Positions 19,406-50,193 of a stretch of DNA of 52,464 nucleotides are shown in pieces. The position numbers were made by a program, and so were the translations under genes. Origin of the DNA: a virus (lineage: Duplodnaviria > Caudoviricetes); the IMG/VR virus record IMGVR_UViG_3300025653_004519, positions 1 to 52,464 of that record, one strand, 5' to 3'. Each line of letters opens with the position of its first letter. The first letter of the stretch is position 1. A model generated the notes under the pieces. It was not told the DNA's origin. It did no database searches and was given only the letters and a program-made list of their open reading frames with translations.

Positions 19406-21124
19406 TTAAAGGATTTTCTTTTTTACAACATAAGAACCAAGAATCAAAATATCCATTTCACAATTTAGAAATGTTTTGATTGCATCTGTTGGGGTTAAAA
19501 CCATTGTTTGGTCTTTTAAGTTAAATGAAGTATTAATTACAATTGGAAATCCATTTACTTTATTTAACTCTTTAAGTAATAAAGAAATATATCTATTAGA
19601 GTTATGAGTTACAGTTTGTACTCTTGCAGAACCATCAATATGAGTTATTGAAGGTAATTTATCTTTAAACCTATCATTTACCTTTACAACTTGATTCATA
19701 TAAGGGATTTCTGAATCATAATTAAAGTAAGTTGTTAATGAATCAAAAGTACAAATAGGTGCAAATGGTCTAAATCCTTCTCTCTTTTTAATTACTCTAT
19801 TTAATCTTGATTTCATTTGAGGGTCACATGGATTTGCTAATATAGAACGATTACCCAATGCTCTTGCACCAAATTCTATTCTATCTTGAAATAAACCAAT
19901 GATATTATTTTCAGATATTTCTTTTGCAATATAAGGAATCATTTGTTCTCTTGGTTTCCATTCATAATAAACATCTTTAGAGTAATCATTAAGTGATTTT
20001 AAAATATCTTCTTTAGGATAAAAAGGTCCTAAGAATGGATTTATATTTGTTACTCTTTCTTGTTTTTTATTAGTATAAAATTTAGATAAAGATGCACCAA
20101 TACATGAACCAGCATCAGATGGAGCAGGTGGAATCCAAACATTTTGAAATTTTGTTTTTTCTTTTATCTTTCCATTAGCAGTTCCATTGTATGCACATCC
20201 TCCACTTAAACATAGATTTGGCGATTCTGTAATTTTATATAACTTATCTAATAGTTTAAAGAAATACTTTTCATATTGAAACTGTACAGATGCAGCTAAA
20301 TCTTTATGGTCTTGGGTTAGTGGTTCTTCTGGTAATCTATTTGTTATACCTAAATGTTCTGATAACTTTTCATTAAACATATCAGTATCAGAATATTCGT
20401 ATGTAAAGTAATCCATATTAAGTTCATATAATCCTTTATCAGATTCTTTTATAATATTTTCAAATTTAAGATTATATTTTTTTGGATTACCATATGGAGC
20501 TAATCCCATAACTTTATACTCACCTTCATTTGGTTTAAAACCTAAGAATGCTGTCATAGCTGAATACAACATACCTAACGAATCAGGAAATCCAACAGAT
20601 TCAAGTTCTTTTATTTTATTATCTCTACCTATAGCTAATGAGGTTGTTTTCCATTCACCAACCCCATCTACTGAAAGTATTGCTGAATTTTTAAATGGAG
20701 ATGTAAAATATGAATATGCTAAGTGTGAAGTGTGGTGGTCTGTAAAAGATACTTTGGTTTTCTTTCCTTTAATACTATCGATATCTTTTAATAAAATATC
20801 ATATGCCTTTTTATTTCTATCAAGTATAGTATTGTTGTTTTTCTTTGAAAAAAAATCATACCACTTCTTTGGTCTTTTTTGAGTGGTTGTTTCAATTCTA
20901 TCTAACTTTTCAGTTGGATTTTCATAAAAACAAATATAGTTTATATCTTCTTTGGTAATTGAGTTTGATTCAAATATCCATTTAATTGTATTGTGTGGAA
21001 AAGATGAATCGTGTTTTATACCTGTAAATCTTTCTTCTTCACAAGCCGATACAACTTTTCCATCTTTTAATAAACATGCTGCACTATCGTGGTAACCACA
21101 ACTTATTCCTAAAATATAACTCAT
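19406..21124 (-). CDS. Carbamoyltransferase (NodU/CmcH family)
   Basis: HDSAA, EEERF, DHHTSH, DGVGE, EYKVMGLAPYG, EFGARALGNRS, KKREGFRPFAP, NTSFN. Confidence 0.92.
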   Translation of the reverse strand: MSYILGISCGYHDSAACLLKDGKVVSACEEERFTGIKHDSSFPHNTIKWIFESNSITKEDINYICFYENPTEKLDRIETTTQKRPKKWYDFFSKKNNNTILDRNKKAYDILLKDIDSIKGKKTKVSFTDHHTSHLAYSYFTSPFKNSAILSVDGVGEWKTTSLAIGRDNKIKELESVGFPDSLGMLYSAMTAFLGFKPNEGEYKVMGLAPYGNPKKYNLKFENIIKESDKGLYELNMDYFTYEYSDTDMFNEKLSEHLGITNRLPEEPLTQDHKDLAASVQFQYEKYFFKLLDKLYKITESPNLCLSGGCAYNGTANGKIKEKTKFQNVWIPPAPSDAGSCIGASLSKFYTNKKQERVTNINPFLGPFYPKEDILKSLNDYSKDVYYEWKPREQMIPYIAKEISENNIIGLFQDRIEFGARALGNRSILANPCDPQMKSRLNRVIKKREGFRPFAPICTFDSLTTYFNYDSEIPYMNQVVKVNDRFKDKLPSITHIDGSARVQTVTHNSNRYISLLLKELNKVNGFPIVINTSFNLKDQTMVLTPTDAIKTFLNCEMDILILGSYVVKKKIL

Positions 21125-21870
21125 TATAAATAATCTTCGTCAATATATTTATTGGATTCAAAAAATGTATTTTTGTTTTCCTCTATATATCCATGTTCTA
21201 AGTATTCATTTAACATTTTTTTCTGATGTTGTTTCATTACATTTACAACTTTAGTAATGTAGTGAGTTTTACAATCAGTCATTTCTCTTATAAGAAGATA
21301 TAAATGTTTTTTGTTAAAGTTTTCTATATGTTCACTTCTTCTAAATAATTCTAATATTGCATCTGCAATCTGAATATCTCTTTTTTTACTAAATACTGTA
21401 CTTAAGTTTTTATCCCAATAATCTAACATTATTTGTTTAAACTCTTTAAACTCATTATTTTCTTCTACTTCATAATGGTCATTTTCAGGATTCCAAGTTT
21501 CTGGCATCTGAGATAACAAAGAATTTTGTTTCCATCTTTTGTAGTTACCATTGTTCTTTAAAATCAAATGATTTTTTGCAATAATAGTAAAATAAGAAAA
21601 AGCCCTACCTTTACCTTCTTGAAACATATGTATTTTTTCTACCATTGTAGAGACAACTTCCATTTGAATATCTTTTTTTGGTACATCAAAGTAAGTAAAC
21701 TTAAATGTATTTAAAACATTTTCTGCCAATTTTTCGAAAGGATATTTAATTCTTTCTTCATAAATTTTAGACCTTTCTGCTGGGTCGGTTGATTTGTTGT
21801 ACTCTATGATTGCTTCTTGAGCAGGTGTACCAAAATATATTTTGGATTTTTTTCTTCTTTTTTTGGGCAT
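21124..21870 (-). CDS. Phage late-transcription sigma factor (T4 gp55-like)
   Basis: Region-2-like KGRAFSYFTIIAKNHLI (compare gp55 AYFTQI); N-terminal KxYF. Confidence 0.7.
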   Translation of the reverse strand: MPKKRRKKSKIYFGTPAQEAIIEYNKSTDPAERSKIYEERIKYPFEKLAENVLNTFKFTYFDVPKKDIQMEVVSTMVEKIHMFQEGKGRAFSYFTIIAKNHLILKNNGNYKRWKQNSLLSQMPETWNPENDHYEVEENNEFKEFKQIMLDYWDKNLSTVFSKKRDIQIADAILELFRRSEHIENFNKKHLYLLIREMTDCKTHYITKVVNVMKQHQKKMLNEYLEHGYIEENKNTFFESNKYIDEDYL

Positions 21871-21871
21871 A

Positions 21872-22147
21872 TTATATATCTTCGTTTAATTCTTCAACAA
21901 TCTTTTTCAGTTGACCAAAAGTGGCTCCAACTTCATCATCTTTTTCAAATGCTTGTTTTGTATCAATAACTCTCATTTGGTCAAGAGCCGTTATAACTCT
22001 ATTTCTAACTGAAGTAACAGTTCTAACTAACCTATCTTCAAGTTGTTCGTTCTGTCTTAAAAGGTTTCTAATACCCACCAATAAGACAATGTTCAGTATT
22101 ACTGAAACTCCTATAATGATATTATAGGTTGTAAATATTTCTAACAT
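21872..22147 (-). CDS. Single-TM coiled-coil protein (possible lysis accessory)
   Basis: N-terminal hydrophobic helix; directly downstream of the lysin-like gene. Confidence 0.45.
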   Translation of the reverse strand: MLEIFTTYNIIIGVSVILNIVLLVGIRNLLRQNEQLEDRLVRTVTSVRNRVITALDQMRVIDTKQAFEKDDEVGATFGQLKKIVEELNEDI

Positions 22148-22148
22148 A

Positions 22149-22736
22149 TTATTCTAAGTTTAATTTGTATCCACTAAATTGTGTAAGGTAGGAAGTTAAT
22201 TTTGTACCATTACCATCTCTGAATTCTTTTCCTTTTCTTAAAAACCTTTTAACATTACCTGGTCCTGCTAAGTGTGCAGCTGCTAATATTCCACTTTCGG
22301 TAATCTCGTTACCATTTATAGTTTTACCTTCCCATTTATCAATATACTTCTGAAGTATTTTTTTGTTGTGTAAAAGTAAATCTAACATTGCTTTTTCTTG
22401 TAAGTAAGGTGAATTAAGAAATTGTTCTTTTGATACATCGTATCCTAATGATTTGAGAGTTCGTTTACCAAATTGGTATTTTCCCATATAACCCCAACCA
22501 TTTACAACATCGTATCTGTTTGAGGATTCTCTCATTCCTATTGCTTCAAGAAACATATCGTGTTGATTTATTTCTATCTTAATAGGTTCTATTTCTATTT
22601 CTACAAGTTCAACTGGTTTAGGTTCTAATACCTCTGCTACTGGTTGAACTTTTGGTAATATAATGTTGGCTGTGAAACCAACTAATCCCAATGTTACAAA
22701 CATTGAAATTAATACTGTTAATATTTGTTTTCTCAT
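22149..22736 (-). CDS. Lysozyme-fold lytic transglycosylase with N-terminal membrane anchor (endolysin candidate)
   Basis: RESS (catalytic Glu), GKYQFG, AAAHLAGPG. Confidence 0.75.
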   Translation of the reverse strand: MRKQILTVLISMFVTLGLVGFTANIILPKVQPVAEVLEPKPVELVEIEIEPIKIEINQHDMFLEAIGMRESSNRYDVVNGWGYMGKYQFGKRTLKSLGYDVSKEQFLNSPYLQEKAMLDLLLHNKKILQKYIDKWEGKTINGNEITESGILAAAHLAGPGNVKRFLRKGKEFRDGNGTKLTSYLTQFSGYKLNLE

Positions 22737-22763
22737 AGGGATTGCTCCTTTTGATTTACTATG

Positions 22764-22795
22764 TAAATATACGAAAAATTTTCGATATATCCAAA
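22764..22795 (-). promoter_or_regulatory. Bacteroidota-type housekeeping (early) promoter
   Basis: TTTG-N20-TATATTTA; compare TTTG-N19-21-TAnnTTTG. Confidence 0.8.
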
Positions 22796-22811
22796 TTTTT
22801 AGGGAGTTTTT

Positions 22812-23090
22812 TTAACACTCACCTATCGGCCCATAGTATAAACCTTCTGTAACTTCATCTTCTTCATCTGGTATTCTTTCTAATACCTCATTTGTCATTT
22901 TAAGAAGTTTTTTATTTTCTTCTACTAATTCTCGCCACAACTCCATATTAAAATCAATTTGTTCTTTGATTTCTTCTTTAGTAAAAACTTTTTTTTCTAT
23001 AAGTAAATCCATAATACTCTGAGTTACTAAACTCTGAGTTAATAGTTTACTCTGTAATTGTTTTATCATTGTTTTTGATATTAAGTTCAT
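22812..23090 (-). CDS. Hypothetical protein (start may be ATG at 23069)
   Basis: ORF in the tiled array. Confidence 0.55.
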   Translation of the reverse strand: MNLISKTMIKQLQSKLLTQSLVTQSIMDLLIEKKVFTKEEIKEQIDFNMELWRELVEENKKLLKMTNEVLERIPDEEDEVTEGLYYGPIGEC

Positions 23091-23346
23091 CTAATAAATC
23101 TTTTAATTCATTTTTATCTTCATTTCCAAAAACCAAATCACCAAATGATTTATTGATTGATTTATTACCATAACCTAATGCGGATGCTAATCTAACACAA
23201 ACAACTTTATACTCATTGATATCCATATCATCTGGTACATCAAATTCTATTTTGTTAGCCTCTCTATTTGATTCTATAAAGTCTTTATCAGTATAGCTAA
23301 ATATAAGTTTTCCCATGTTTTCGTTTCTTTTATAAGATTTCAGCAC
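23047..23346 (-). CDS. Hypothetical protein (start probably MGKLIF)
   Basis: ORF in the tiled array. Confidence 0.55.
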   Translation of the reverse strand: MLKSYKRNENMGKLIFSYTDKDFIESNREANKIEFDVPDDMDINEYKVVCVRLASALGYGNKSINKSFGDLVFGNEDKNELKDLLDELNIKNNDKTITE

Positions 23347-23938
23347 CTTGTGAAAGTAAAGGTTGTGCCTTTTTATATTTCATAAATTCGGTAGTTCCAT
23401 CTGATAGTTTAACCATCACTCTTTCATTTCTACCATATTTTTTTTCTCGTATGATTGTTTGTGTATATCTTCTATCTGTTATCAATCTACCTTCAAGGTG
23501 GTCAATCTCGTGTTGTGCTACAACACACTCTAACATACCTTCATCATTATAGAATTCTTCAGATGTTTTCCATTCTTCTTTTGAATCAGGTGAAAATATT
23601 ACTGTTCCTAAATTATCACACTCTACTGTTAATGTTTTAAATCTTACTGTTTGAACCGGTTTACGCATTGTCTTAGGCATAGATAAACATTGTTCTACAT
23701 AAACAACTGATTCCTCTGATACTTCTGCAACTCTTGGGTTGATTAGTACCAATGGTTCCTTTACATTGATTACACAGGCTCTTTTATTTATTCCTATTTG
23801 ATTTGCCGATAACCCTATACCACCATGTTTCTTTAACTCTTGAAGAAGTGTTACTGATATTTCATCAATCTCTTCTTGAGTGAATGGCGATGGTTCTATC
23901 TTTGTTTTAAGTTTACTTGGGTCTTGTATTAATTTCAT
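23330..23938 (-). CDS. def: Peptide deformylase with C-terminal extension
   Basis: GIGLSANQIG, EQCLS, QHEIDH. Confidence 0.9.
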   Translation of the reverse strand: MKLIQDPSKLKTKIEPSPFTQEEIDEISVTLLQELKKHGGIGLSANQIGINKRACVINVKEPLVLINPRVAEVSEESVVYVEQCLSMPKTMRKPVQTVRFKTLTVECDNLGTVIFSPDSKEEWKTSEEFYNDEGMLECVVAQHEIDHLEGRLITDRRYTQTIIREKKYGRNERVMVKLSDGTTEFMKYKKAQPLLSQGAEIL

Positions 23939-24132
23939 TTAACTAATTTTTTTGTTGTATAATCTCCACCGAAAGGTCTTTCATAAACTGTTTCTCCTCC
24001 ATCTGGTGATTCAAAGATTTTAATATCTTTGTGTTCTTCTAAAAATTTTTCTCTTTGTAAGTAAATACTTCTTACTGCTTTTCCAAGTTCCATATCGTTT
24101 GGATACTCTTTAACTAATTTTTCTAAATTCAT
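23935..24132 (-). CDS. Hypothetical protein
   Basis: YPNDMELG and IFESPDGGETVYERPFG segments; translationally coupled. Confidence 0.6.
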   Translation of the reverse strand: MNLEKLVKEYPNDMELGKAVRSIYLQREKFLEEHKDIKIFESPDGGETVYERPFGGDYTTKKLVK

Positions 24133-24136
24133 AATT

Positions 24137-24610
24137 TTATTCTGCTATGTTTAAATATTTTTCCAATAACCAAGATGATGATTGAATCTTTTTACCAAGA
24201 CCCCATACTGAATCTATTCCGTATGAATTACATACATCATTTTCTGGTGTAGTTGTTTCGGTTCTATCACCACCATTACCAAATGCCATTTCACCTTTTA
24301 GTAAATCACCATTTTCGTTTACATATTTTTTTCTTGCATGGTCAATGAAATCAATTGCTGTATCATCTCCATGTATAAGTGGATTCATCACATAAACATA
24401 ATCCACATCTTTAAGGTTTTCCATTATGAATTTTCTTTCATCTTCTTTCATAAATTGTTTTCCTTTTTTTCTAAACAACCAACTATCGTTGTTTAATCCT
24501 ATCCAAACTTCATCTGCTAACTTTTTAGCATTTTGGATACATTCTATGTGGCCTTTATGAACAGGGTCAAATCCACCACTAATTAATATTACTTTATATT
24601 TTTTACTCAT
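24137..24610 (-). CDS. HxGH-family nucleotidyl(cytidylyl)transferase
   Basis: SGGFDPVHKGH, NGGDR, KIQSSSW. Confidence 0.85.
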   Translation of the reverse strand: MSKKYKVILISGGFDPVHKGHIECIQNAKKLADEVWIGLNNDSWLFRKKGKQFMKEDERKFIMENLKDVDYVYVMNPLIHGDDTAIDFIDHARKKYVNENGDLLKGEMAFGNGGDRTETTTPENDVCNSYGIDSVWGLGKKIQSSSWLLEKYLNIAE

Positions 24611-24628
24611 TATAAACTATTTGTTATA

Positions 24629-24660
24629 CAAATATACGAAAATTATTTTACAATTCCAAA
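24629..24660 (-). promoter_or_regulatory. Bacteroidota-type early promoter
   Basis: TTTG-N20-TATATTTG, exact consensus. Confidence 0.85.
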
Positions 24661-25626
24661 TTATTTCCAAGAAAATCCTGCACCCATGTGTCCAAACTGT
24701 GCTGTATTACTAAATATTGGTTTTCTTAATTCTAAGAAATCTATAATTCCTTTAGGTGATAAATCATATCCTTTGATAAACTCGTGTTCTCCATCAACTA
24801 TTGCAGTTGCTTGAAGTGGTTGGTCATATCCAATTGCATAAGCAAGTTGAACTACAACCTCTTGTACCTCTGGTCTTTGTTCTAAGATATCTACTGCGAT
24901 TCTTCTTCCCATATAAGCTGCACTTCTATCAACCTTAGTACAATCCTTACCACTAAATGCTCCACCACCAAGTGGAACTCTTGGGCCATAATTATCAACT
25001 GCTAGTTTTCTACCAGTTAACCCAGCATCGGCAGTGAACCCACCAATGTTCCAATCACCTGCAGGATTACAATGTAGAGCTTCAATATGATACTGAGGGA
25101 AATCTTCAAAGTATTCCATTACTAATTTTTGTAATTCATCTGCTGGTGCGCTCTGAAATGAACATACAACTCTTAATGAGTTTCCATTCATTGTTACTTG
25201 TGTTTTACCATCGTAAGGATACTTATCAAATACAGATTTATTAAGTTCTCTCGATAGGTAATATTCTTGTGGTAAAAATTCTTCATTATCTCTACAAGCA
25301 TAACCAATCATAATTCCTTGGTCTCCTGCTCCACCTATATCAACTCCTTGAGCAATCTCGGGTGATTGAGTATTTAAGTTAGTAATTACTTCAATAGAAT
25401 CATCAGTAGTAATATCTTTCACTACTTGAATAATTTCATCATCTGTAATTTTGTATTGAGAAGTAACTTCTCCTGTAACATAAACCAAACCATTACCACC
25501 AGCAGTTTCAATTGCTACTCGTGAATTTGGGTCGTGTGTTAAGTGAATATCTAATAGTGTGTCTGATATTCTATCACACATTTTGTCTGGGTGCATCGGT
25601 GATACACATTCTGCTGTTCTAATCAT
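24661..25626 (-). CDS. metK: S-adenosylmethionine synthetase
   Basis: HPDKMCD, GAGDQG, DGKTQVT, GLTGRK, GGGAFSGKD, KVDRSAAY. Confidence 0.95.
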   Translation of the reverse strand: MIRTAECVSPMHPDKMCDRISDTLLDIHLTHDPNSRVAIETAGGNGLVYVTGEVTSQYKITDDEIIQVVKDITTDDSIEVITNLNTQSPEIAQGVDIGGAGDQGIMIGYACRDNEEFLPQEYYLSRELNKSVFDKYPYDGKTQVTMNGNSLRVVCSFQSAPADELQKLVMEYFEDFPQYHIEALHCNPAGDWNIGGFTADAGLTGRKLAVDNYGPRVPLGGGAFSGKDCTKVDRSAAYMGRRIAVDILEQRPEVQEVVVQLAYAIGYDQPLQATAIVDGEHEFIKGYDLSPKGIIDFLELRKPIFSNTAQFGHMGAGFSWK

Positions 25627-25809
25627 TTATTCTGATTTTGTAATTAATGTTGTTATAATATATAAAATAAAAATTGGTACTGATGGTATAAAGAAAAGGA
25701 GTATAAAAAGTAATCTCCATAACAATGGGTCTGAATCTGTATAATTTCCTAACCCACCACATATACCAGCTAAACTTCTTTCAGTTTTACTTCTTCTAAA
25801 ATTTCTCAT
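25627..25809 (-). CDS. pspC: PspC-domain membrane protein
   Basis: RSKTERSLAGICGGLGNY..DPLLWRL plus TM helix. Confidence 0.8.
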   Translation of the reverse strand: MRNFRRSKTERSLAGICGGLGNYTDSDPLLWRLLFILLFFIPSVPIFILYIITTLITKSE

Positions 25810-25912
25810 CTAATTCTTGTTGTAATTTTTGAATTTCTTTTTTAATTTTTTGAGTTTGTGGTTTGACCATTTTTAACTCTATGATTTTTTCAATTTTTTC
25901 TTTCTTATCCAT
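25796..25912 (-). CDS. Small helical protein (38 aa)
   Basis: Read by hand: MDKKEKIEKIIELK...; overlaps both neighbours. Confidence 0.5.
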   Translation of the reverse strand: MDKKEKIEKIIELKMVKPQTQKIKKEIQKLQQELDEKF

Positions 25913-26075
25913 TTTGAATCTGTGATTTTAAATCTTTATACTTTTTATTCCACTTTGATATTTCTTCTTTATATCCTTTTTTAATTAAATCTTGTTTTTC
26001 AAGTTCTTGTTTAAGTTGTAGATTTTCTTTTTCGAGTTGTTCTATTTTCAACTCATATAGTTTTAAACTTTGCAT
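25905..26075 (-). CDS. Small coiled-coil protein (56 aa)
   Basis: Read by hand: MQSLKLYELKIEQLEKEN...; fills the gap after thyA. Confidence 0.55.
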   Translation of the reverse strand: MQSLKLYELKIEQLEKENLQLKQELEKQDLIKKGYKEEISKWNKKYKDLKSQIQNG

Positions 26076-26077
26076 AA

Positions 26078-26986
26078 TTAATTTGATAAGGGTGCTTTAA
26101 TTGTTGGTTGTGATTGATATCCGATAATCTCGTATTCAAACTCACCATCTAAAAGATTTACATTTGATAATTTCAAACTTGGTAACTGAAAAGATTTTCT
26201 TATTCTTTGTTCTTCAGCTTGTTCTAAATGATTTTTGTACAAGTGAGTATCACCCAAGTTACCAATTAGTTCACCTGGTTCTAAATTAGTTTCTTCACAT
26301 AATAGTAGTAATAACATTCCATAAGATGCAATGTTAAATGGCAATCCTAAGAAAGTATCAACACTTCTTTGATTCCACATTAAAGATAGTTTACCATCGT
26401 TTACATAACATTGAAATCCATAATGACAAGGTGGTAGAACCATCTCATCTAACTCTGAAGGATTCCAAGAGTTTACCATTAATCTTCTACTATCAGGATT
26501 TTCTTTTATAAGTTCTATAAGGTTTTTAATTTGGTCTACTTTATATGTTGGTGATGAACCATGTCTTTTTTCAATTCTTCTCCATTGTTTTCCATAAACA
26601 GGTCCAAGTTCTCCCCAAACCCTAGCGAAATCATCATCTGTTTTAATTTTTTCTACAAACTCAGGAAGAGTAAGTGGTGCATCTTCCAACTCATAGTTAT
26701 ATGTTCTTTCATATGTTTTATAAGCATCACCATTCCAAATATTACATCCATTATCCACAAGATACTTAATGTTTGTATCTCCTTTTAAAAACCATTTTAA
26801 TTCTGTCATGATTGATTTAATTGCCATCTTCTTTGTTGTAAGAAGTGGGAATCCCTCACTCATCTTATGTCTAATTTGTTTACCGAAAACAGATATTGTT
26901 CCTGTTCCTGTTCTATCGGTTTTTTCTTTACCCTCAAGTAAAATATCTTGAAGTAAGTTTTGGTATTGTAAATCTAAGTTATTCAT
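26078..26986 (-). CDS. thyA: Thymidylate synthase
   Basis: DRTGTGT, LGPVYGKQWR, LPPCH, QRSVDTFLGLPFN, HLYKNH. Confidence 0.97.
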   Translation of the reverse strand: MNNLDLQYQNLLQDILLEGKEKTDRTGTGTISVFGKQIRHKMSEGFPLLTTKKMAIKSIMTELKWFLKGDTNIKYLVDNGCNIWNGDAYKTYERTYNYELEDAPLTLPEFVEKIKTDDDFARVWGELGPVYGKQWRRIEKRHGSSPTYKVDQIKNLIELIKENPDSRRLMVNSWNPSELDEMVLPPCHYGFQCYVNDGKLSLMWNQRSVDTFLGLPFNIASYGMLLLLLCEETNLEPGELIGNLGDTHLYKNHLEQAEEQRIRKSFQLPSLKLSNVNLLDGEFEYEIIGYQSQPTIKAPLSN

Positions 26987-27644
26987 TATTTTCTAACATT
27001 TTTTTAAGTCCTCGATATCCCTCTTTTTCACTATAATCGTAATCTGAATTTATACTTTCTGCCTTTTGCATAAATGGGTCGTTGTTTACTTTACTCCAAT
27101 TAATTTTATCATCATTTTCAAATTGTTGTTGAGTTACAAACATATCTTCCCAACCAATTGTAAGTAAGGGACTGGTATAAACTTGGAATCCATTAGCAAG
27201 TAATGATACTATTCCAAATGTTCTATTGTGTACACAAATACCAAAAACTCTTCCGGCAATTAAAAACTTATCAGTTTTATTAAATTTTTTAGTAATATCA
27301 AGGTAGTTGGAGTCTCTTTTATTCTTAAGATAATAGTTTTCACCCCTTTCACCTAACACATAAGTATTAATATTGTTTTCGTTTGCAATATTTTCTATAT
27401 AATTAGAAACATTTTTTTCAGGCCTAATCCATTCTCTATTTTTTAAGTTAGGACCAAGATTACCATTTGATATTAATATATTTTTAAATGTAAACCCTTG
27501 AAGATTATTAAGTAAAGTTCTATTCATAGCATTATATACATCTATATTATGTGGTAACTGTCCTGGTTCACCTGTTTGTTTCAAAACATCCACATTCCAT
27601 AAATCTATTATTACTAAGTAATCAAATTCTATATTTTCCTTCAT
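26979..27644 (-). CDS. Divergent isochorismatase/cysteine-hydrolase-like protein
   Basis: LVIIDLW and LIAGRVFGICV pattern. Confidence 0.4.
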   Translation of the reverse strand: MKENIEFDYLVIIDLWNVDVLKQTGEPGQLPHNIDVYNAMNRTLLNNLQGFTFKNILISNGNLGPNLKNREWIRPEKNVSNYIENIANENNINTYVLGERGENYYLKNKRDSNYLDITKKFNKTDKFLIAGRVFGICVHNRTFGIVSLLANGFQVYTSPLLTIGWEDMFVTQQQFENDDKINWSKVNNDPFMQKAESINSDYDYSEKEGYRGLKKMLENNE

Positions 27645-28261
27645 ATGAGGTTTTCTTTATATTGTCTTAGTTTATATTTAGGGTCTAAATATTTGTTAAG
27701 TTTATTTTCATTAATATTAATATTCCATGATTTAATTATATCTAAAGATTTTTGCCTATCCTTACCATATAAATCCTCGTAATAAGTAATAGGTATGTTT
27801 AATTTTTTTGATATTAATTTTATTTCTTCTTTTTCTTTTTTTAAATCTTCAAACCTGTTATCTGATTTAAAATCTTTTTTATATTCTTGAGGTATATCAC
27901 TTGGTGTCCACTTTAACATAACTGACTGTTTGTTATCCATTCTCCACATCATGTGTAAGTAACTTTCTTTATGTTCTTCTTTATTTAATCTATCAAGTAT
28001 TATAACTCTATCAAACTCTCTAATAAATTTCTTATAAAAAGATAAACCATCTGTATCTAAGTTTTTAGGCTTTTGCTTACACAAACATTTTACACAAAGC
28101 TTTGTATAATCATTAAAATTAGAAATTGGATAATCTAAATTCGTACCATAATTAATACCTGAGTTAAATGGTTCACTTAATTGATAAAACCCTTGGTCTC
28201 CGAATCCTTTTAATAAAGAAGATGTTCCACTTCGTGAAATACCAAGTATTAATATTCTCAT
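27641..28261 (-). CDS. Sulfotransferase-like protein
   Basis: GISRSGTSSL PAPS-binding loop, EPF, IILDR, YEDL. Confidence 0.75.
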   Translation of the reverse strand: MRILILGISRSGTSSLLKGFGDQGFYQLSEPFNSGINYGTNLDYPISNFNDYTKLCVKCLCKQKPKNLDTDGLSFYKKFIREFDRVIILDRLNKEEHKESYLHMMWRMDNKQSVMLKWTPSDIPQEYKKDFKSDNRFEDLKKEKEEIKLISKKLNIPITYYEDLYGKDRQKSLDIIKSWNININENKLNKYLDPKYKLRQYKENLI

Positions 28262-29643
28262 TTACTTATATTTTCTAATCTTTCTATTTCGTTTTTAATT
28301 TTTATATTCCAAGGACCCCAAGTAATATTATCAACCATCCACTTTCTATAATAAGGTGGGATTGATGCAACTGGTTTACCTTTATATTTTCCAAAGGTCA
28401 TATATACTTTTTCTATATCACCATCTTCGTTTGTTTTTTCTGCAAGATTAATACCACCTTCTAAGTGAATACCAATTTCGTGCATTGGAATACCTGTGAT
28501 TTGTTTCTTACCCTCACCAAACAATTCCCATTCTTCACCACCAGTATCTTTGTAATAAAGTTCTTCTACTTTACCAAACTTTTCTACTGAACCTACAAAA
28601 TCAACCACCAAACAATTTTCTTTTTGTGGATGAATACGAGTTCCTCTACCAACAAATTGATACCACCAAGATATAGATGCGGTTGGTCTACCTGTAATCA
28701 AACAATCTAATTCAGGATAATCAAACCCAACTGTAAGTACATTAACTTGTACGATAACTCGTATCTGTTGGTTTCTAAATTCTTCTATGATTCTTTTTCT
28801 TTCTTGCTTAGGTGTACCACCATGTACTACTGCTGCTTGAGGAATCTTTCTAGCAAGTTCTGTTGCTTGTTCTATCGTTGGTACTGCAACTAATATAGAT
28901 TTTCTATCATATACTTCTTCAATCTTTTTTACAATCTTATCACCAATGTTTTGGTTCTCATAAGAACGAGCAATAGATTCTTGTGTATATTCTGCACCAC
29001 TCGAATTATAAACTAAAGCACCAGTATCGAAATCATAAGATTGATATTCTAATGGAGTCCAATAACCTAACTTAACAATATCTTGAATCTGAGAAACATG
29101 AAGGATGTATTTAAAGAACACTCCATGTTTAGAACGATTTGTTAGCATTACCAACTTTGAAAATGGACCGGTATCTCCCATGTTGGTTTGTAATTTTAAG
29201 GGGGTAGCAGTAAGACCAAGTATGTGAGTTGCTTTCATACCATCCACAAATCTCCTTAATTGTCCTGATTTGTTTCTTGGGTATCTATCGCACTCATCTA
29301 TGATAATCTTAGTGACCCCCATCTCTTTAAACTTATACGCAATATTGATTATGGAACCAATCGTTGCATAAGTTACATCACCTAATTCTTTACTTCCCAT
29401 TGAAGCAGAATAGATAGATGCCTCTCCACCGAGAGTTATAAACTTGTCATAGTTTTGTTCTAAAAGTTCTTTTGATGGTTGTAGAACCAAAATCTTCTCA
29501 CCAAGTTCTTTTGCAATTGCAGCGATAACAATCGATTTACCGAAGGCAGTTGGTGCTACGATAATCGATGGTTTCATTTTTGGAGTTCGTAAAAACTCAA
29601 CTCCAATTGCTACTGGTTCTATTTGGTTTTCTCTTAGTTTCAT
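28258..29643 (-). CDS. SF2 DNA helicase (RadD/YejH/UvsW-like)
   Basis: PTAFGKS, DECD, TAT, GFDYP, QFVGRGTR; C-terminal MTFGKYKG module. Confidence 0.88.
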   Translation of the reverse strand: MKLRENQIEPVAIGVEFLRTPKMKPSIIVAPTAFGKSIVIAAIAKELGEKILVLQPSKELLEQNYDKFITLGGEASIYSASMGSKELGDVTYATIGSIINIAYKFKEMGVTKIIIDECDRYPRNKSGQLRRFVDGMKATHILGLTATPLKLQTNMGDTGPFSKLVMLTNRSKHGVFFKYILHVSQIQDIVKLGYWTPLEYQSYDFDTGALVYNSSGAEYTQESIARSYENQNIGDKIVKKIEEVYDRKSILVAVPTIEQATELARKIPQAAVVHGGTPKQERKRIIEEFRNQQIRVIVQVNVLTVGFDYPELDCLITGRPTASISWWYQFVGRGTRIHPQKENCLVVDFVGSVEKFGKVEELYYKDTGGEEWELFGEGKKQITGIPMHEIGIHLEGGINLAEKTNEDGDIEKVYMTFGKYKGKPVASIPPYYRKWMVDNITWGPWNIKIKNEIERLENISK

Positions 29644-42364: not shown

Positions 42365-42991
42365 TTATAAAATATTTTTTTTATTACTAAACCCAATGTT
42401 TGTTGTTAATGTCCATCTTTCACTATCTGTAAGATTTGGTTGAGAACGATGCCAGATTGCAGAATCAAATATTAAAACATCCTCTTGTTTTACCTTAACC
42501 TCTTCCCATAACCAAGAATCATTAGTTTTTAAATATTTTTTTCTATGAGAATAATAAGGGTTTTTAAATTCAATATTACCACCATTTTTTGGTAACTCAA
42601 TATAAAGACAAGCAACAACAACTGAATCATTGTGTGAGTGTTGTCTTACATAACCATCTTTACCATATCGAGAAAACCAAGCGTTTTGTATTTCTAATTC
42701 ATATTCATTTGGGTATTTTAAATAATCGAATACAAATTTTTTACAAATTGGTTTAATAAAATTATAGTAGTTTTTTAATTCAGGGAGTTGATGTGTTGGT
42801 AAAATTTGATTTTCAAAAGAAGTAACTCCATTTTCTTCAAGATGATGTTGGTGTGGATGAGATACTAATTTTTCTGCTATTGGTTTTATAGTTGTCCAAT
42901 CTAATTTATATTGAGATTTAACCGCAGAATTTTTAAATAAATGAATATTCATTACTTTGTTATATTTTTTATTTTTAATTTTGTTTCCCAA
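42365..42991 (-). CDS. 2OG-Fe(II) oxygenase, HxH type (start probably ATG at 42952)
   Basis: W...HSH...LY...GNIEF...LIFDSAIWH...R..LTTN. Confidence 0.8.
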   Translation of the reverse strand: MGNKIKNKKYNKVMNIHLFKNSAVKSQYKLDWTTIKPIAEKLVSHPHQHHLEENGVTSFENQILPTHQLPELKNYYNFIKPICKKFVFDYLKYPNEYELEIQNAWFSRYGKDGYVRQHSHNDSVVVACLYIELPKNGGNIEFKNPYYSHRKKYLKTNDSWLWEEVKVKQEDVLIFDSAIWHRSQPNLTDSERWTLTTNIGFSNKKNIL

Positions 42992-43350: not shown

Positions 43351-43878
43351 TTATATTAATGTTGTGGTCTGATAAAAATCTTTTTCTGTTAGGAAAATTG
43401 TTAATGAGAATCGTTCTCCATCAATAACCTCGGTTACTTCATGAATATCTGAACTGCTGAATAAAGAATATGAACCAAGGTCTCTATTTTGTGGTTTATC
43501 CTTTACTATCAAATCACCTCCAATATAACTATTTGGATTTGATAGTTGGATTACAAGTGTTTTAACAATAACATCATTAGCGTACTTTGTAAAATCAGTA
43601 TGTTTTTCAAAATAATCACCTTTAGAGTATTTAACTATTTTTACTGCTTGTTTAGTGATTGACTTAATATTAAGAATGTTAAGTTTTTTAAGAATGAATG
43701 ATATTAAAGATTTGTTATAACAATCAATATAATGTGCACTTGCGTTTCTTTTTATTGATATTGTCTCATTGTTTGGAAGATTTACAACAAGCGGTTTATT
43801 TCCGTCTAATGCCGTATCCTTGTTATAAAAAGATTTAATATAATCACATTCTTCTTTAGTGAATATGATATTTTGCAT
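43351..43878 (-). CDS. 2OG-Fe(II) oxygenase (prolyl-hydroxylase/PKHD-like)
   Basis: Y..GDYF.KHTD, YIGGDL, HEVTEV..GERFSL. Confidence 0.85.
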   Translation of the reverse strand: MQNIIFTKEECDYIKSFYNKDTALDGNKPLVVNLPNNETISIKRNASAHYIDCYNKSLISFILKKLNILNIKSITKQAVKIVKYSKGDYFEKHTDFTKYANDVIVKTLVIQLSNPNSYIGGDLIVKDKPQNRDLGSYSLFSSSDIHEVTEVIDGERFSLTIFLTEKDFYQTTTLI

Positions 43879-43883
43879 AAAAG

Positions 43884-44027
43884 TTAATCTATGTGTTTTG
43901 CCTTGAAGTATGTTACAAAGTTAGATAAAGTAGTATTTATGTTTTGTTTTGTAGTATCATCTACTGATACTGTTCTTCTTGTATCAATATCTTCTTGTGA
44001 AAATGTCTTATATATTGTTACGCTCAT
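43884..44027 (-). CDS. Small Thr-rich protein (47 aa)
   Basis: Read by hand: MSVTIYKTFSQEDIDTRRTVSVDDTTKQNINTTLSNFVTYFKAKHID; AAGGAG RBS. Confidence 0.65.
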   Translation of the reverse strand: MSVTIYKTFSQEDIDTRRTVSVDDTTKQNINTTLSNFVTYFKAKHID

Positions 44028-44038: not shown

Positions 44039-46333
44039 TTATTTGTTATGTACTATAATTCCATTCGCGATATACGAACTCAAATCTTTTACAGTAATGT
44101 TATATACCTTTTCTGATGCATCGGAACGAACTACTTTAATAGATTCTATTTCTATCCACTCTCCATCATGAGATATAGAATCACCAACTTTTAATTCAAG
44201 TGGTTCTTGTTCTGATTTATATGGTTCTTGGTTAGAATCAGGTACAAGAGATTTCCATACAAATGGACCACCTTCAACAGTTTCATCAGCTGTAAGGAAT
44301 GGATGTTCTGGTGTAAATTCTATACCAGTATCGTTAATTGTATAAAGAGATGGTTCATCTCCTAATGATTTACATGCTTCAGCGTGAGATGCAACTGTAT
44401 GTGAACTATCTACTGCGATTACTTCTCCATCAGCTAAATCATCATTAGTACTATCCCATCCTTTTACAACATCACCTACAACGATATCTTCAATATTTTT
44501 TTCACTATCATCTGCCAATGTAATCTTAGTACCAGCCGCAAAACAAGTTGGACCTGGTAAGGATTTAATATTGTGTACCAATAAATCTTCTGCAAAGTAT
44601 GTATGGTCATCTTTTACATCAATCAAGTGGAATACTTCAAATTCTCCGTCTAAAACTTCTCTTTCAGATAATTTTACTAACTCACCATTTTTGTTAAATA
44701 AAGAATCGCCAATTACTAATTCTTCAGCAGCTTTCCATCCACCATTTGTATATATCTTATGTCTTGGTGTTGATTTAATTTCTTCACCATTATCAGTAGT
44801 TAATTTAATTAACTTATTTTGAGTTGTAACTCTAATAGTTCCAACCTTTCCTGCTCCATATTCTTTCTTATCATTATTATATGTTAATAATATATCACTT
44901 GTGGTTATATCTTCAATATTTTTATAAGTACCATCTTCTAATAAAATTTTAGTTCCTGCAGGGAAACAGTTGTGAGTAATAATTTTTAAGTTGATATCAC
45001 CATCCTTAAGAATAAATGTATCTGTACTTTCTAAATCTAAAATATATGTTTTATGGTCTCCTTCTAAAACTTGAATATCTTTTGATGAAATATTTACTAA
45101 ACTACCTGTTGTATCAAGTAATTTATCATTAGAAATATCTAAATCATAAATATCTTTATATCTTAATTTGTCTCCAGCTGTATCGTATATTAAAAGGTGT
45201 TGGTTAGCTTGTGCTCTGAAAGTTGCTCCTGTATCTGTTTCTAATTCATAAATTAATTTTCTTGGTAAATCTTCTGATATTGAATTTACAAGTGCAGAAG
45301 ATGTTGTATATGAACCAGATGGGAATGAACTACCTGGTGATGACCAGCTTGTAAACACATCTACTGAATCGGAATCGGGTGCTCCTTCTATATATGTTGA
45401 TTTATATCTATTACCAACTACCGTGTCTTTTACTTTAACCGCAGTACCATCTTCATTTACAATTTCTTCTTCCTCAAATATACCACCATATCCATTAAAT
45501 ATTGGGAAGTTAGTTGCAAATTCATAATAGTGTTTTGTATCTACTAAGTTACTACTACCCGATGTGGTTAATGTAGTTGCTTTTTGTAATATAGCATCAA
45601 CTTCAACAGTTGCAAGATTCATTAAACTTAAATCAGTACCATATATTATATTAAATGAACGAATTGAAGATGCAACAGATGCATCAGTATCATTGTAGTA
45701 GTTCATTACAATTGAACCACTCGCTGCACTACTACTAACAAAAGCATCAACTTTTTCAGTTATTGTACCACTTGATTGTAGTTTGTAAAACTTTAAAGAG
45801 TGTTTAGGGTTTTCAACATCTTTAACAACAACATCAGGTATATTAGATGCATTCTCACTTCTTAAAAGTGTATCAACTTGATGTTCAGATGTGTTTTGAA
45901 ACATATTTGGTATAGAACCTGTATCGTTGTTATCGTAATATAATTTTAATAACTCATCATCTTGCTTACAATAAGTACTATCAAATATTGCAGATTCATC
46001 ATATGCTAATCGTAATATAAATTTACTATCACTATCAGCAACAGAAGTAGGATATATAGTTGAGTATGCCTCAGGATGAGTTACATAACTACCTGTAAAT
46101 CCATTTACTGCTAAACTCTGTGATAATTCACTTACGAAATTATCGTGAACAACACTTTTATAAATTACATTTACTTCATCAATATTACTAGATGAAATTA
46201 GATTAAAAAATTCGGTGAAATCAGTATTGTGCAATGCACCACTTGTAAAGGCAGTATCTGTGTTAAATTCTAATAATCTTAAGTTATCAGAACTGTCTTT
46301 TACAAAATCAGCTGAGAATAAAGTACCTTTCAT
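44039..46333 (-). CDS. ATP-grasp-like domain plus three tandem Hint (intein-like) domains
   Basis: N-terminal LFSADF...LLEFNTDT; Hint ends THN, VHN, VHN; Hint starts CFPAGT (aa 456) and CFAAGT (aa 597); TPRH and TPEH block-B motifs. Confidence 0.8.
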   Translation of the reverse strand: MKGTLFSADFVKDSSDNLRLLEFNTDTAFTSGALHNTDFTEFFNLISSSNIDEVNVIYKSVVHDNFVSELSQSLAVNGFTGSYVTHPEAYSTIYPTSVADSDSKFILRLAYDESAIFDSTYCKQDDELLKLYYDNNDTGSIPNMFQNTSEHQVDTLLRSENASNIPDVVVKDVENPKHSLKFYKLQSSGTITEKVDAFVSSSAASGSIVMNYYNDTDASVASSIRSFNIIYGTDLSLMNLATVEVDAILQKATTLTTSGSSNLVDTKHYYEFATNFPIFNGYGGIFEEEEIVNEDGTAVKVKDTVVGNRYKSTYIEGAPDSDSVDVFTSWSSPGSSFPSGSYTTSSALVNSISEDLPRKLIYELETDTGATFRAQANQHLLIYDTAGDKLRYKDIYDLDISNDKLLDTTGSLVNISSKDIQVLEGDHKTYILDLESTDTFILKDGDINLKIITHNCFPAGTKILLEDGTYKNIEDITTSDILLTYNNDKKEYGAGKVGTIRVTTQNKLIKLTTDNGEEIKSTPRHKIYTNGGWKAAEELVIGDSLFNKNGELVKLSEREVLDGEFEVFHLIDVKDDHTYFAEDLLVHNIKSLPGPTCFAAGTKITLADDSEKNIEDIVVGDVVKGWDSTNDDLADGEVIAVDSSHTVASHAEACKSLGDEPSLYTINDTGIEFTPEHPFLTADETVEGGPFVWKSLVPDSNQEPYKSEQEPLELKVGDSISHDGEWIEIESIKVVRSDASEKVYNITVKDLSSYIANGIIVHNK

Positions 46334-46368: not shown

Positions 46369-46417
46369 ACTATTTTATATTTTCAATAAATTTTAAAGGA
46401 TATTAATTTTTTATCTG

Positions 46418-46502
46418 CGGAGAGAGAGGGATTCGAACCCCCGGATGCTTTCACATCGCTGGTTTTCAAGACCAGTGCATTCGACCGCTCTGCCATCTCT
46501 CC
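46418..46502 (-). tRNA. tRNA-Ser(TGA)
   Basis: Acceptor GGAGAGA/TCTCTCC, anticodon arm CTGGT-CTTGAAA-ACCAG, long variable arm, GTTCGAATC; no encoded CCA. Confidence 0.95.
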
Positions 46503-46735: not shown

Positions 46736-46755
46736 AATTAATTAATTTAAATTAG

Positions 46756-46829
46756 TGGAGGATATCGGAGTCGAACCGATGACCTCTTCGGTGCAAGCGA
46801 AGCGCTCTAGCCAGCTGAGCTAATCCCCC
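46756..46829 (-). tRNA. tRNA-Ala(TGC)
   Basis: GGGGGAT/ATCCTCC with G3:U70; CTTCG-CTTGCAC-CGAAG; no encoded CCA. Confidence 0.95.
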
Positions 46830-47215: not shown

Positions 47216-47262
47216 AATTTTATTTTTATTTAATTAAACAATATTTCAATGAACAATAGTTG

Positions 47263-47334
47263 TAGCCCCTAGGAGAATCGAACTCCTCTTTCTAGGATGA
47301 AAACCTAACGTCCTAACCGATAGACGAAGGGGCC
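47263..47334 (-). tRNA. tRNA-Glu(TTC)
   Basis: GGCCCCT/AGGGGCT, TTAGG-TTTTCAT-CCTAG, GTTCGATTC; no encoded CCA. Confidence 0.93.
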
Positions 47335-48532: not shown

Positions 48533-48564
48533 CAAATATACGAATAATTTTTGAATTATCCAAA
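48533..48564 (-). promoter_or_regulatory. Bacteroidota-type early promoter
   Basis: TTTG-N20-TATATTTG, exact consensus. Confidence 0.85.
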
Positions 48565-48568
48565 TTTT

Positions 48569-49279
48569 TTATAATATTTTTTGACTTTTTGTTTCGTAGA
48601 AATCGTTTTTGGTTATAATATTATACTCTTTAATGTGGTTTATGATACATTCAGAAATGTGTTTATGTCCAGCTGAATTAAAATGTCCATCTGAAACATT
48701 TAAACTAGCATCTAATTGGAACCCATTATGAAGTTGGAGAAGATGTTCAAATCCATTTTGTAAACCAAACTTAACTACATATTTATTTCCAAGAAGTTCT
48801 TTTACTCCATCACCTAATTCAGGTAACCAAGATAGTATAACAATTTTAATCCATTTATATTTCTTTTCAAAAGATTTAATAACTAATTCAAGTTCCTTTG
48901 CATCGGTGGGAATTGCACTATCTACATTATAATGTGAAGTTTTAATATGTCTACTAGAATGTGTAAGTTGAATTACAATTAAATCTAAGTGTTCTGGTAT
49001 TATAAATTGACTAAGATTATTTAAGATATGATATATGTTCCCATTACTTCCACCATTTCCAAACTTACCAATATGATATGATTCATTAAAGTACTCTGAA
49101 ACTAATCTTGGAAAATGATGCTTTACACGATAATCATATAAATCGATAGGTAATTTTTCATTGGAATGTTTTGGTGGAATTAATTTGTTTATATCTTTAG
49201 ATGACCATCCTTTAGATTTTAACACTTCCCACTCAAGTCCCTGTCCCCAAGTAAATGAATCTCCCAAAAATAAAATCAT
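48569..49279 (-). CDS. SGNH/GDSL-fold hydrolase or acyltransferase
   Basis: FLGDSFTWG, GGSN, DGHFN..GH. Confidence 0.8.
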   Translation of the reverse strand: MILFLGDSFTWGQGLEWEVLKSKGWSSKDINKLIPPKHSNEKLPIDLYDYRVKHHFPRLVSEYFNESYHIGKFGNGGSNGNIYHILNNLSQFIIPEHLDLIVIQLTHSSRHIKTSHYNVDSAIPTDAKELELVIKSFEKKYKWIKIVILSWLPELGDGVKELLGNKYVVKFGLQNGFEHLLQLHNGFQLDASLNVSDGHFNSAGHKHISECIINHIKEYNIITKNDFYETKSQKIL

Positions 49280-50193
49280 ATTATATCTTTCTTTATATTA
49301 TTTGGTAATGTTTTTAAATAATTATATATATCAGTTTCTTCAGATAATACATCTGATAATATACTTTGATATTTAGGTTCTTTTAATTTTGCCTCTACCA
49401 ATTCATTAAGTTCTACATTTCTCCAAGAGGTTTTATATTCTGTACTCTTTATGGTTTTTTTGATATTTCTATACTTGTCCAAAACCTTTGGGTTACTTTG
49501 ATATTTTTTAAAAACCTGCTCTACATCCATTTCTCCTATATCAAGTAATTTAACTTTACTAACATCTAAAATATCTTCTTTAAAAATTTGATATAAGTTT
49601 GATAAATATAATCTTGTATGATTTAAGTTTACAACCTTTTCTTTATCTTCAACAAATGTTTTTAGGAAATCATCTAAAAGTAATTTTAGTAATTTTATTT
49701 CTAATGGCTTAAATACATGAGATGATGGTATTGTTGCCCAATCCCAATCTACACTTTGTATATCTATAAAATCATAAATCTCTTTTGGATTATCAAAGTT
49801 ATCTTCTATTATTTTAGAGTAATCTTTCTTTTTTAAAAAGTATTCATGTGAACCATCGTATCTATCAAATGAAGATATAAATTCTTGATATAATCCACTA
49901 ACAGTTCTTTTATAGGGATTTCTATAAAGCAGTATAATATCTCTATCTGATGTTTTATTAAAAGCTTCTTCAATTACTTGAACTCCTTCTTCAAAGTTAT
50001 AATCAATACTTGATTTATCATTAATTACTATTTCTAAATTATTCTTAAGTTTATCTGTGGTAGGTGAGTAATTGTAATGAAATGCTTTTCCAAAATATGC
50101 CTGAGTCATTCTTGATGCTACTTTGGGGAATGTACTAACAATACACTTATCATTATACCACAAATCACCACTTATTTTATAATTTGTTTCCAT
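49276..50193 (-). CDS. Sulfotransferase-like protein (second family)
   Basis: FPKVASR and LYRNPYKRTVSG (5' and 3' PAPS-binding motifs). Confidence 0.65.
   Translation of the reverse strand: METNYKISGDLWYNDKCIVSTFPKVASRMTQAYFGKAFHYNYSPTTDKLKNNLEIVINDKSSIDYNFEEGVQVIEEAFNKTSDRDIILLYRNPYKRTVSGLYQEFISSFDRYDGSHEYFLKKKDYSKIIEDNFDNPKEIYDFIDIQSVDWDWATIPSSHVFKPLEIKLLKLLLDDFLKTFVEDKEKVVNLNHTRLYLSNLYQIFKEDILDVSKVKLLDIGEMDVEQVFKKYQSNPKVLDKYRNIKKTIKSTEYKTSWRNVELNELVEAKLKEPKYQSILSDVLSEETDIYNYLKTLPNNIKKDII

Follow-up and report, generated by a model that had tools for sequence, protein, structure and literature searches.

Dozens of unrelated small enzymes encoded by an uncultured marine myovirus and its relatives share a short C-terminal peptide. 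We followed up a 52.5-kb viral contig (IMG/VR record IMGVR_UViG_3300025653_004519, positions 1 to 52,464; hereafter the window), which has a GC content of ~30% and carries all of its genes on the minus strand. A first-pass annotation of this sequence had reported that tailoring enzymes of different folds end in two aliphatic residues. We found that this tail, with the consensus K-K-[S/T/N/K]-[L>I]-[I>L]-COOH, is real, acts at the level of the peptide, is conserved and predicted to be unstructured, and is centred on a gene island. We give about even chances to the reading that the tail is a pathway-specific tag that recruits the enzymes of the island to a common hub, carrier or substrate complex. 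The main rival to recruitment is a degron.

The ending is over-represented in the window. [IL][IL]-COOH is found on 11 of the 71 minus-strand open reading frames (ORFs), whereas the internal frequency of this dipeptide (2.71%) predicts 1.9 (binomial p = 3e-6), and among 1089 residue-class pairs scanned it ranks first by enrichment. A nucleotide-context null, built from all remaining stop codons of the coding strand, whatever their frame, gave the ending at 152 of 3012 positions (5.0%), or 3.6 expected in the window (p = 8e-4). The count is slightly weakened because two of the tailed proteins, at 27641 and 37165, are full-length paralogues (39% identity) and are not independent. All of the C-termini quoted in the first-pass annotation are present at the genes it named, all on the minus strand, although it overlooked one tail-bearing ORF, encoding an NT5C/HAD 5'-nucleotidase. 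The proteins it listed as lacking the tail do lack it: ThyA ends APLSN, MetK FSWK, PhoH QQYS, UvdE PFIK and the helicase NISK, and the same holds for GNAT (WVKI), SET (NITK) and the ORFs at 31646 (IQYE) and 26979 (ENNE). Its claim that the baseplate proteins lack the tail also holds: the ending occurs on none of the ORFs from 602 to 19342.

The excess extends to related loci. Fetching IMG/VR loci with an alignment of the 37165 protein family yielded 32 loci totalling 483 kb; a scan with the 37165 protein as a single query returned zero matches. The ending is present on 160 of the 685 ORFs in these loci (23%), compared with 2.6% for internal dipeptides and 5.9% at non-gene stops. A second IMG/VR set was anchored on the untailed hub gene described below. 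It comprised 79 new loci, 12 of which were dropped because their contigs had already been used, and in the remaining 67 the ending occurs on 258 of 1110 ORFs after identical proteins were collapsed into one (near-identical genomes from other samples may remain). In the densest arrays, the tail is found on nearly every consecutive gene (12/16 in locus L021 and 14/18 in locus L024), and in record G005 it is carried by 14 of the 17 ORFs between 10.4 and 21.7 kb but by only 9 of 152 elsewhere. With the same ORF caller, the tail-bearing genomes gave 11/65 (window), 25/321 (G001), 18/258 (G002) and 13/205 (G004), while three control phages with compact genomes and a GC content of 33-36% showed no excess (Flavobacterium phage immuto 6/217, HTVC008M 3/182 and P-SSM2 3/298; ratios 0.6-1.3). 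The first-pass annotation had raised AT-driven residue bias as a concern, and the excess survives correction for it. Because the nucleotide nulls and the three control genomes of similar GC all point the same way, AT bias is not the explanation. The tail is lineage-specific: neighbouring genes are tailed in 119 of 486 cases when the anchor gene is tailed and in 24 of 227 when it is not, and in six loci whose anchor lacks any hydrophobic pair, only 3 of 64 neighbours are tailed (summed by hand).

Is the conserved entity a peptide or a stretch of DNA? A logo of 122 non-redundant tails has K at -5 and -4, S, K, T, N or Q at -3, L (80) or I (42) at -2 and I (78) or L (44) at -1. The hub-anchored set replicates this logo, with K at -4 in 118 of 254 tails, K at -4 or -5 in 174 and K, S, N or T at -3 in 201; its commonest endings are KTLI, KSLI, KSII, KTII and KTLL. 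At position -2, nine kinds of codon are used in near-genomic proportions, and G/C-containing Leu codons account for 27 of 80. The tails are followed by TAA (73), TGA (40) or TAG (9), and the bases past the stop are variable. Since synonymous codons and all three stops vary, selection acts on the peptide, and what these sequences have in common is a class of amino acids rather than a DNA word. The stop usage (TGA at 40 and TAG at 9 of 122) and the variable downstream bases also rule out a DNA motif lying across the stop, of the TATAAT or late-promoter-like type.

The tail crosses many protein families. When 756 ORFs were sorted into 277 BLAST families, the tail was present on at least half of the members in 40, never in 229 and in a mixed pattern in 8. 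Seventy-eight tail proteins, at most three per family and drawn from 131 unique sequences, match 31 Pfam families, which is a minimum for the tail and bears out the first-pass view that unrelated folds share it. These families include 2OG oxygenases, dCMP deaminase, NT5C, Trp-halogenase-like proteins, peptide deformylase (PDF) and APS kinase, as well as zeta-toxin-like kinase, carbamoyltransferase, AMP-binding, SET, radical SAM and GDSL proteins. The proposed restriction to tailoring enzymes fails, as APS kinase, dCMP deaminase, a Trp-halogenase-like flavoenzyme, radical SAM, SET and AMP-binding proteins are also tailed in the relatives. Position-wise enrichment revealed no longer amphipathic pattern common to the families; W at -9 and F at -12 apparently come from the 2OG family.

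The best-sampled case of conservation is the P-loop sulfotransferase/kinase-like enzyme at 37165-37824 (minus strand, 219 aa, tail KKNII, with the tail codons at the low-coordinate end). A 5.8-billion-protein collection yielded 31 homologues, of which 30 were aligned and one, a 152-aa fragment, was left out. Two hydrophobic C-terminal residues, preceded by K or a polar residue and following a basic linker of variable length, are found in 28 of the 30, and the tail is kept down to ~36% identity even though linker length varies. An AlphaFold2 model from a 32-row alignment is confident overall (pLDDT 90.8, pTM 0.89), with residues 216-219 below 50. The tail is conserved, yet in this model it lies outside the fold and is predicted to be disordered. 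The fold itself weakly resembles P-loop kinases and Stf0/TPST sulfotransferases. A tblastn search of GenBank phages with 37165 gave zero matches, and so did a search of one genome per prokaryote species with the alignment, which hence offers no clue to the host.

How well is the tail kept in the other families? The first-pass annotation had made conservation in orthologues a test of its proposal, and most of the named families pass it, while the carbamoyltransferase does not. The 37165 paralogue at 27641-28261 (minus strand, 206 aa, Pfam Sulfotransfer_4 E = 0.013) ends KENLI. The sulfotransferase-family-2-like protein at 49276-50193 (minus strand, 305 aa, tail KKDII) is named from a lead only, an Atlas feature score of 0.96 to a Sulfotransfer_2 cluster; all 8 of its database homologues end [IL][IL], and just one of these is divergent (44% identity, KQNLL). 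For the 2OG-Fe(II) oxygenase of the 2OG-FeII_Oxy_3 family at 43351-43878 (minus strand, 175 aa, tail TTTLI), the Pfam domain (E = 3e-9) stops 12 residues before the C-terminus, and 23 of 28 unique members in the related loci end [IL][IL], with a hydrophobic pair in 27. The second oxygenase, of the 2OG-FeII_Oxy_5 family (42365-42991, minus strand, 208 aa, tail KKNIL), likewise has a domain (E = 7e-13) that stops ~11 residues before the C-terminus, but its sole relative in the related loci ends KNNHI, so that the ending is present in 1 of 2. The small protein at 38007-38201 (minus strand, 64 aa, tail KSQIL) had been noted as a partial match; four of five unique relatives end K[SE]QI[IL], and the fifth has a 2-residue extension. 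The protein of unknown family at 38797-39153 (minus strand, 118 aa) has the variant tail KKVI; in its family, 3 of 7 unique members end [IL][IL] and 5 of 7 in a hydrophobic pair.

Two families are partly tailed. The putative glycosyl(fucosyl)transferase-like protein at 29668-30699 (minus strand, 343 aa, tail NNTLI) owes its label to an HxRR motif, which we take to be indicative of such enzymes; it has no significant PDB or Pfam match, and a NodZ hit is non-significant (E = 0.35). Its seven closest homologues all end [IL][IL], as do 26 of 77 overall, and 35 of 77 end in a hydrophobic pair. In many remoter relatives, K-S-A-I, K-S-V-I or K-S-P-I takes the place of an ending with a hydrophobic pair; this may be a tag variant with more likeness to the ...KKAI end of MuA. 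The SGNH/GDSL-like hydrolase at 48569-49279 (minus strand, 236 aa, tail SQKIL) has an N-terminal GDS motif and a Pfam GDSL match at E = 0.037; among 65 near-full-length cluster representatives of its family, 10 end [IL][IL] and 21 in a hydrophobic pair.

For three window proteins, the ending probably or possibly has another origin. The carbamoyltransferase at 19406-21124 (minus strand, tail KKKIL) matches Pfam Carbam_trans_N and Carbam_trans_C, with the C domain reaching residue 569 of 572. Relatives in three loci end IIIKK, SKSNK and LIYK, leaving the tail in 1 of 4, and on these sequences its membership is doubtful. The NT5C/HAD 5'-nucleotidase at 36592-37107 (minus strand, tail LDYLL, Pfam NT5C E = 4e-12) belongs to a family in which all 12 unique relatives end L-x-x-L-L, probably a different, helix-type and family-specific signal. 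The peptide deformylase at 23330-23938 (minus strand, tail GAEIL, Pfam Pep_deformylase) had also been listed as a partial match, and this part of the claim probably does not hold. Its relatives end GAEIL and GYEIV without basic or polar context, and the ending is probably specific to the family and distinct from the tag.

The tails cluster around one kind of gene. Each array holds a single large gene without the tail, which we call the hub gene; in the window it spans 44039-46333 (minus strand) and encodes 764 aa, predicted to comprise a permuted ATP-grasp-like domain (residues ~1-285) and then three Hint/BIL domains. Pfam places two Hint domains at 453-582 and 597-764, and the Intein_splicing, PT-HINT and Hint models match the protein. 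The hallmarks HN|CFPAGT and ...VHNK are present in the sequence, and a phmmer search of the PDB matched the BIL domain 2lwy. A third, Hint-like domain was detected by fold in an AlphaFold2 model of residues 1-450 (pLDDT 74), which matches inteins and BIL domains. As judged from its sequence, the hub has the Hint fold, with Cys at the N-terminal end of the domain and His-Asn at the C-terminal end. In Foldseek, the 1-450 model also matched YjfC (7uk6) and eukaryotic glutathione synthetases (1m0w, 8fbz) with probability 0.99-1.0 and a TM score of only ~0.3, which suggests a permuted ATP-grasp domain in the order found in glutathione synthetase. The N-terminus is conserved (MKGTLFSADF...LLEFNTD), with E22 and N24 invariant in an E-x-N motif that is presumably Mg-binding. 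In the Atlas, the hub family occurs in viral clusters only, and a query with the N-terminus returned just its own clusters.

All 8 tail-rich records have one copy of the hub gene, and the 3 control phages have none. The tail becomes rarer as one moves away from the hub, from 32/80 at 1-5 genes to 24/79 at 6-10, 21/126 at 11-20, 16/215 at 21-40 and 44/701 beyond 40, a count in which G005 and G006 have an identical island. The second set shows the same decay (169/443 at 1-5 genes, 69/376 at 6-10 and 20/291 beyond 10). Overall, the tail is present on 38-40% of genes within 5 genes of the hub and on ~6-7% far from it. The first-pass annotation had imagined recruitment to one scaffold and had pointed to the Hint proteins as candidates; the concentration of tails at the hub locus fits that idea. 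A complex prediction for hub residues 1-285 with 37165, run with no controls, scored 0.02 against a mark of 0.32 and says nothing either way about binding. A second Hint-like ORF, which stands alone, lies at 38290-38796 (minus strand, 168 aa, ending VVHSK, Pfam Intein_splicing E = 2e-4) and is 28% identical over 156 residues to the C-terminal Hint domain of the hub.

Directly after the hub gene is a conserved small ORF of 47 aa (43884-44027, minus strand) with AAGGAG, a strong Shine-Dalgarno sequence, upstream of its ATG; it falls below the 60-aa ORF cut-off used in the other counts. A homologous small ORF follows the hub in 18 of 19 cases in the first set and in 46 of 49 in the second, and the homologues mostly end ...[FI]xx[FL]K-x-K-H-[S/L/T]. 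It is a candidate carrier or precursor peptide.

We favor recruitment because the signal centres on the ATP-grasp/Hint gene and its small partner. In this model, the tail would be a short linear motif at the end of flexible C-terminal extensions on many unrelated small cytoplasmic enzymes, kept by selection and read in trans by one common partner. It would serve as a shared address for the interchangeable enzymes of the island, with co-localisation as its purpose, and the ATP-grasp/Hint protein and the ~47-aa peptide gene would form the island's centre.

Several observations weigh against this model. In G004 the tails lie away from the hub gene, and both phylogeny and the way in which the loci were sampled confound the link between hub and tails. 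Several families are only partly tailed, including the SGNH (10/65) and fucosyltransferase-like (26/77) families, and some tailed relatives, such as dCMP deaminase, have no obvious role in a tailoring pathway. Moreover, inside islands the tails are commoner before overlapping or close genes (22/51, 10/36 and 6/20) than before gaps of >60 nt (4/23), and only 1 of 9 genes without a downstream gene is tailed. Since tails are commoner at overlaps, an RNA or translational contribution is possible.

Encapsulin targeting peptides, degrons and the peroxisomal tripeptide PTS1 are known examples of shared C-terminal address peptides; the phage tail differs from them in its sequence, its scale and its viral setting. 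PTS1 (-SKL, or [SAC]-[KRH]-[LM]) is a eukaryotic C-terminal sorting signal. Like the phage tail, it is a tiny peptide on enzymes of many folds, and it is read by one receptor. Unlike PTS1, which is eukaryotic and has a different residue order, the tails described here come from tailed phages of prokaryotes, as the baseplate wedge indicates. Class I PDZ ligands have the form [S/T]-x-hydrophobic-COOH, and bacterial PDZ proteins are mostly periplasmic. Tails such as KSLI, KTLL and KTII resemble these ligands, and substrates of tail-specific proteases, in having S or T two residues before a terminal aliphatic with a free carboxylate. However, S/T is just one option at that position (96 of 254 tails, against 105 of 254 with K/N). 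The PDZ_2 model (PF13180) had 0 matches in the four related records G001-G004 (three of them complete) and matched all 14 control genomes, a result confined to this one PDZ model and to the phage records, without the host.

Encapsulins offer the closest parallel in layout. Family 1 cargo enzymes carry a C-terminal targeting peptide of ~10 residues, SDGSLGIGSLKRS-like, that docks to an HK97-fold shell encoded nearby (PMC8346489). The likeness lies in unrelated enzymes with a common short C-terminal peptide and one docking partner encoded nearby, which in encapsulins has the phage-capsid HK97 fold; the difference lies in the ~10-residue SDGSLGIGSLKRS-like consensus, compared with 4-5 residues and an obligatory terminal hydrophobic pair here. 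The phage logo, K-K-[STNK]-[LI]-[IL], has no G-S-L repeat and so does not resemble the encapsulin-type SDGSLGIGSLKRS peptide. Encapsulins also package one or few cargos, whereas tens of enzymes are tagged per phage island. No encapsulin-type shell gene was seen, although the analysis did not look for a second gene of the HK97 fold.

A clamp-binding tail was also considered and rejected: the family B DNA polymerases of the complete related genomes G001 (191173-193395, plus strand) and G002 (165813-168326, minus strand) end ...TAEKFFSF, an aromatic ending unlike K-x-L-I. We take the polymerase ending to be of the clamp-binding type found in T4 and RB69.

A degron is the alternative that survives best, and we consider it unlikely but well worth keeping in view. 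A host AAA+ protease or unfoldase (ClpX of the C-motif-2 type, Lon, or FtsH with its action on non-polar C-termini) would read the tail, and the enzymes would be short-lived or remodelled on schedule. The tail has features that would suit such a signal: basic residues, then a small one and a hydrophobic one, at a free and disordered C-terminus. The known ClpX and Lon degrons are likewise short autonomous C-terminal signals on a flexible end, and phage proteins are classic clients. The C-motif-2 ClpX tag of MuA is ...RRKKAI (PMC12723719). The tag resembles the phage tails in its basic cluster and hydrophobic end, the latter being one terminal hydrophobic residue after Ala instead of two aliphatics. 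The C-terminal degron of Lon is x-[LI]-[LIV]-H with an invariant terminal His (PMC11986505). It shares with the tails a hydrophobic pair near the carboxyl terminus but needs the His, while the tails end in I or L. The KSAI endings among fucosyltransferase-like relatives, the absence of the tail from structural and replication proteins, and its lineage specificity, which would suit a host-specific reader, are all consistent with a degron. However, a degron does not predict concentration at one locus instead of on early or auxiliary genes at large, nor that ThyA, MetK, PhoH, UvdE and the helicase would be untailed, and neither the ClpX nor the Lon degron is known to label an entire gene island. 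G005-G008, all partial records, yielded no Clp protease gene, and the reader would have to be supplied by the host. Phage Hsp20 is unlikely to be a specific reader, since HTVC008M and P-SSM2 encode Hsp20 and have no tail excess.

The hub could instead act on the tails chemically. LysW/LysX, Pup/PafA and the BIL-ubiquitin-like loci are small-protein or carrier pathways with carboxylate-amine ligases. The invariant core of the phage island is similar in having, from sequence and models, an ATP-grasp-type ligase domain, Hint/BIL domains and a ~47-aa protein. It differs from them in that the ~47-aa protein lacks their acidic or GG-type ends, and in that their enzymes have no shared tag. The tail would then be the docking-and-acceptor site of a phage protein-conjugation system, in which the hub would join the ~47-aa peptide, or its own processed domain, to the tail lysines or the free carboxylate. 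We regard this as a long shot. If true, the enzyme set would be covalently assembled or marked, and a prokaryotic virus would be using a logic like that of pupylation or of the BIL-ubiquitin-like systems.

It is similarly improbable that the two Lys and two aliphatics are a minimal membrane anchor that holds the enzymes at the inner membrane for a lipid-linked substrate. The basic-plus-hydrophobic character of the tail would suit this role, and the sulfotransferase-like, APS kinase, glycosyltransferase-like, SGNH, carbamoyltransferase and dTDP-sugar epimerase-like proteins hint at glycan or surface chemistry. However, two aliphatics beside a charged carboxylate would anchor very weakly, the families share no longer amphipathic pattern, and nucleotide enzymes are tailed too in the relatives.

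We give slightly less credence still to an RNA or translation signal, in which the needs of the downstream start (coupling, re-initiation or an A/U-rich leader) would shape the last codons and the peptide would be a by-product. By spacing to the next gene, the tail is found at 85/448 overlaps and then at 36/271, 22/182, 24/288 (long gaps) and 8/108, and islands show the same trend. ATA is preferred over ATT at -1 (59 versus 18) and TGA stops are over-used, a preference that fits because ATGA overlaps are frequent. Translational coupling cannot be the whole story because tails are present at every gene spacing; inside islands they occur on 30% of genes with 16-60 nt spacers and 17% with >60 nt, compared with a null of 5-6%. 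Moreover, an A/U requirement would favor K, N, F and Y equally, yet -1 and -2 are fixed for I and L alone, the Leu codons at -2 often contain G or C, and the compact control phages of similar GC show no excess.

The least probable reading, that the endings have no common function and reflect AT-driven drift, paralogy or separate cis-structural roles, draws on the two paralogous window examples, the ~30% GC of the genomes and the family-specific or coincidental endings of the carbamoyltransferase, PDF and NT5C proteins, but it is largely refuted by the control genomes, and 40 separate tailed BLAST families, a tail conserved yet disordered in the model and a hub-distance decay that replicates in an independent set also stand against it.

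What kind of phage carries this island? Its baseplate wedge protein (12017-14053) shares 42% identity with that of Microcystis phage Mel-JY01 and 38% with that of Flavobacterium phage immuto; these identities make the contig an uncultured myovirus that is only distantly related to cultured phages. A megablast of 19406-31000 against GenBank phages gave zero matches. Pfam supports the carbamoyltransferase, the two 2OG oxygenases, PDF, ThyA, MetK, helicase, UvdE, PhoH, GNAT, SET, dCMP deaminase, NT5C, Hsp20 and the Hint proteins. The enzyme names given in the first-pass annotation thus hold for the carbamoyltransferase, both oxygenases and PDF, while its sulfotransferase and fucosyltransferase names, like that of the SGNH protein, are weakly backed; for the sulfotransferases, the basis is the weak Pfam hit (E = 0.013), the P-loop kinase/sulfotransferase-like fold and the Atlas lead.

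Other features lie in or around the islands. The islands of relatives (G005 at 10.4-21.7 kb, L021, L022, L024, L025 and L012) encode APS kinase, a small nucleotidyltransferase-like pair, a Trp-halogenase-like flavoenzyme and several 2OG oxygenases and SGNH proteins. Their untailed flanks encode a dTDP-sugar-epimerase-like cupin, an amidinotransferase-like protein and a DNA-methylase-like protein. In the window, tRNA genes for Ser(tga) (46417-46502), Ala(tgc) (46755-46829) and Glu(ttc) (47262-47334), on the minus strand, lie between the hub gene and a DUF6580 gene. By eye, a TTGGATA / TTGGTAA ... CGTATA(A/T)T-like repeat lies downstream of the stops at 22812, 24661, 33509, 37165 and 48569 and looks like a sigma-70-type promoter. 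Two adjacent large structural ORFs (2536-7854 and 7854-9743, minus strand) have a short repeat in common (67% identity over 36 residues and 55% over 44).

Our literature search, whose coverage leaves out most subscription journals and supplementary files, returned no description of the motif or of the hub architecture. Nor did it return anything joining phage with halogenase, sulfotransferase and carbamoyltransferase, or with bacterial intein-like and ATP-grasp proteins. If a single tag of 4-5 residues does address dozens of unrelated enzymes in a phage island, the tail would be a sequence rule for spotting members of an otherwise unannotatable viral pathway, most of whose proteins have no Pfam match, and the single hub, with its ATP-grasp/Hint protein and small peptide, would be the place to seek the product of that pathway. 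The tail would also be a portable tag for recruiting or destabilising proteins. Finally, it would stand as an uncommon example of metabolism in a prokaryotic virus being organised by a short linear motif.

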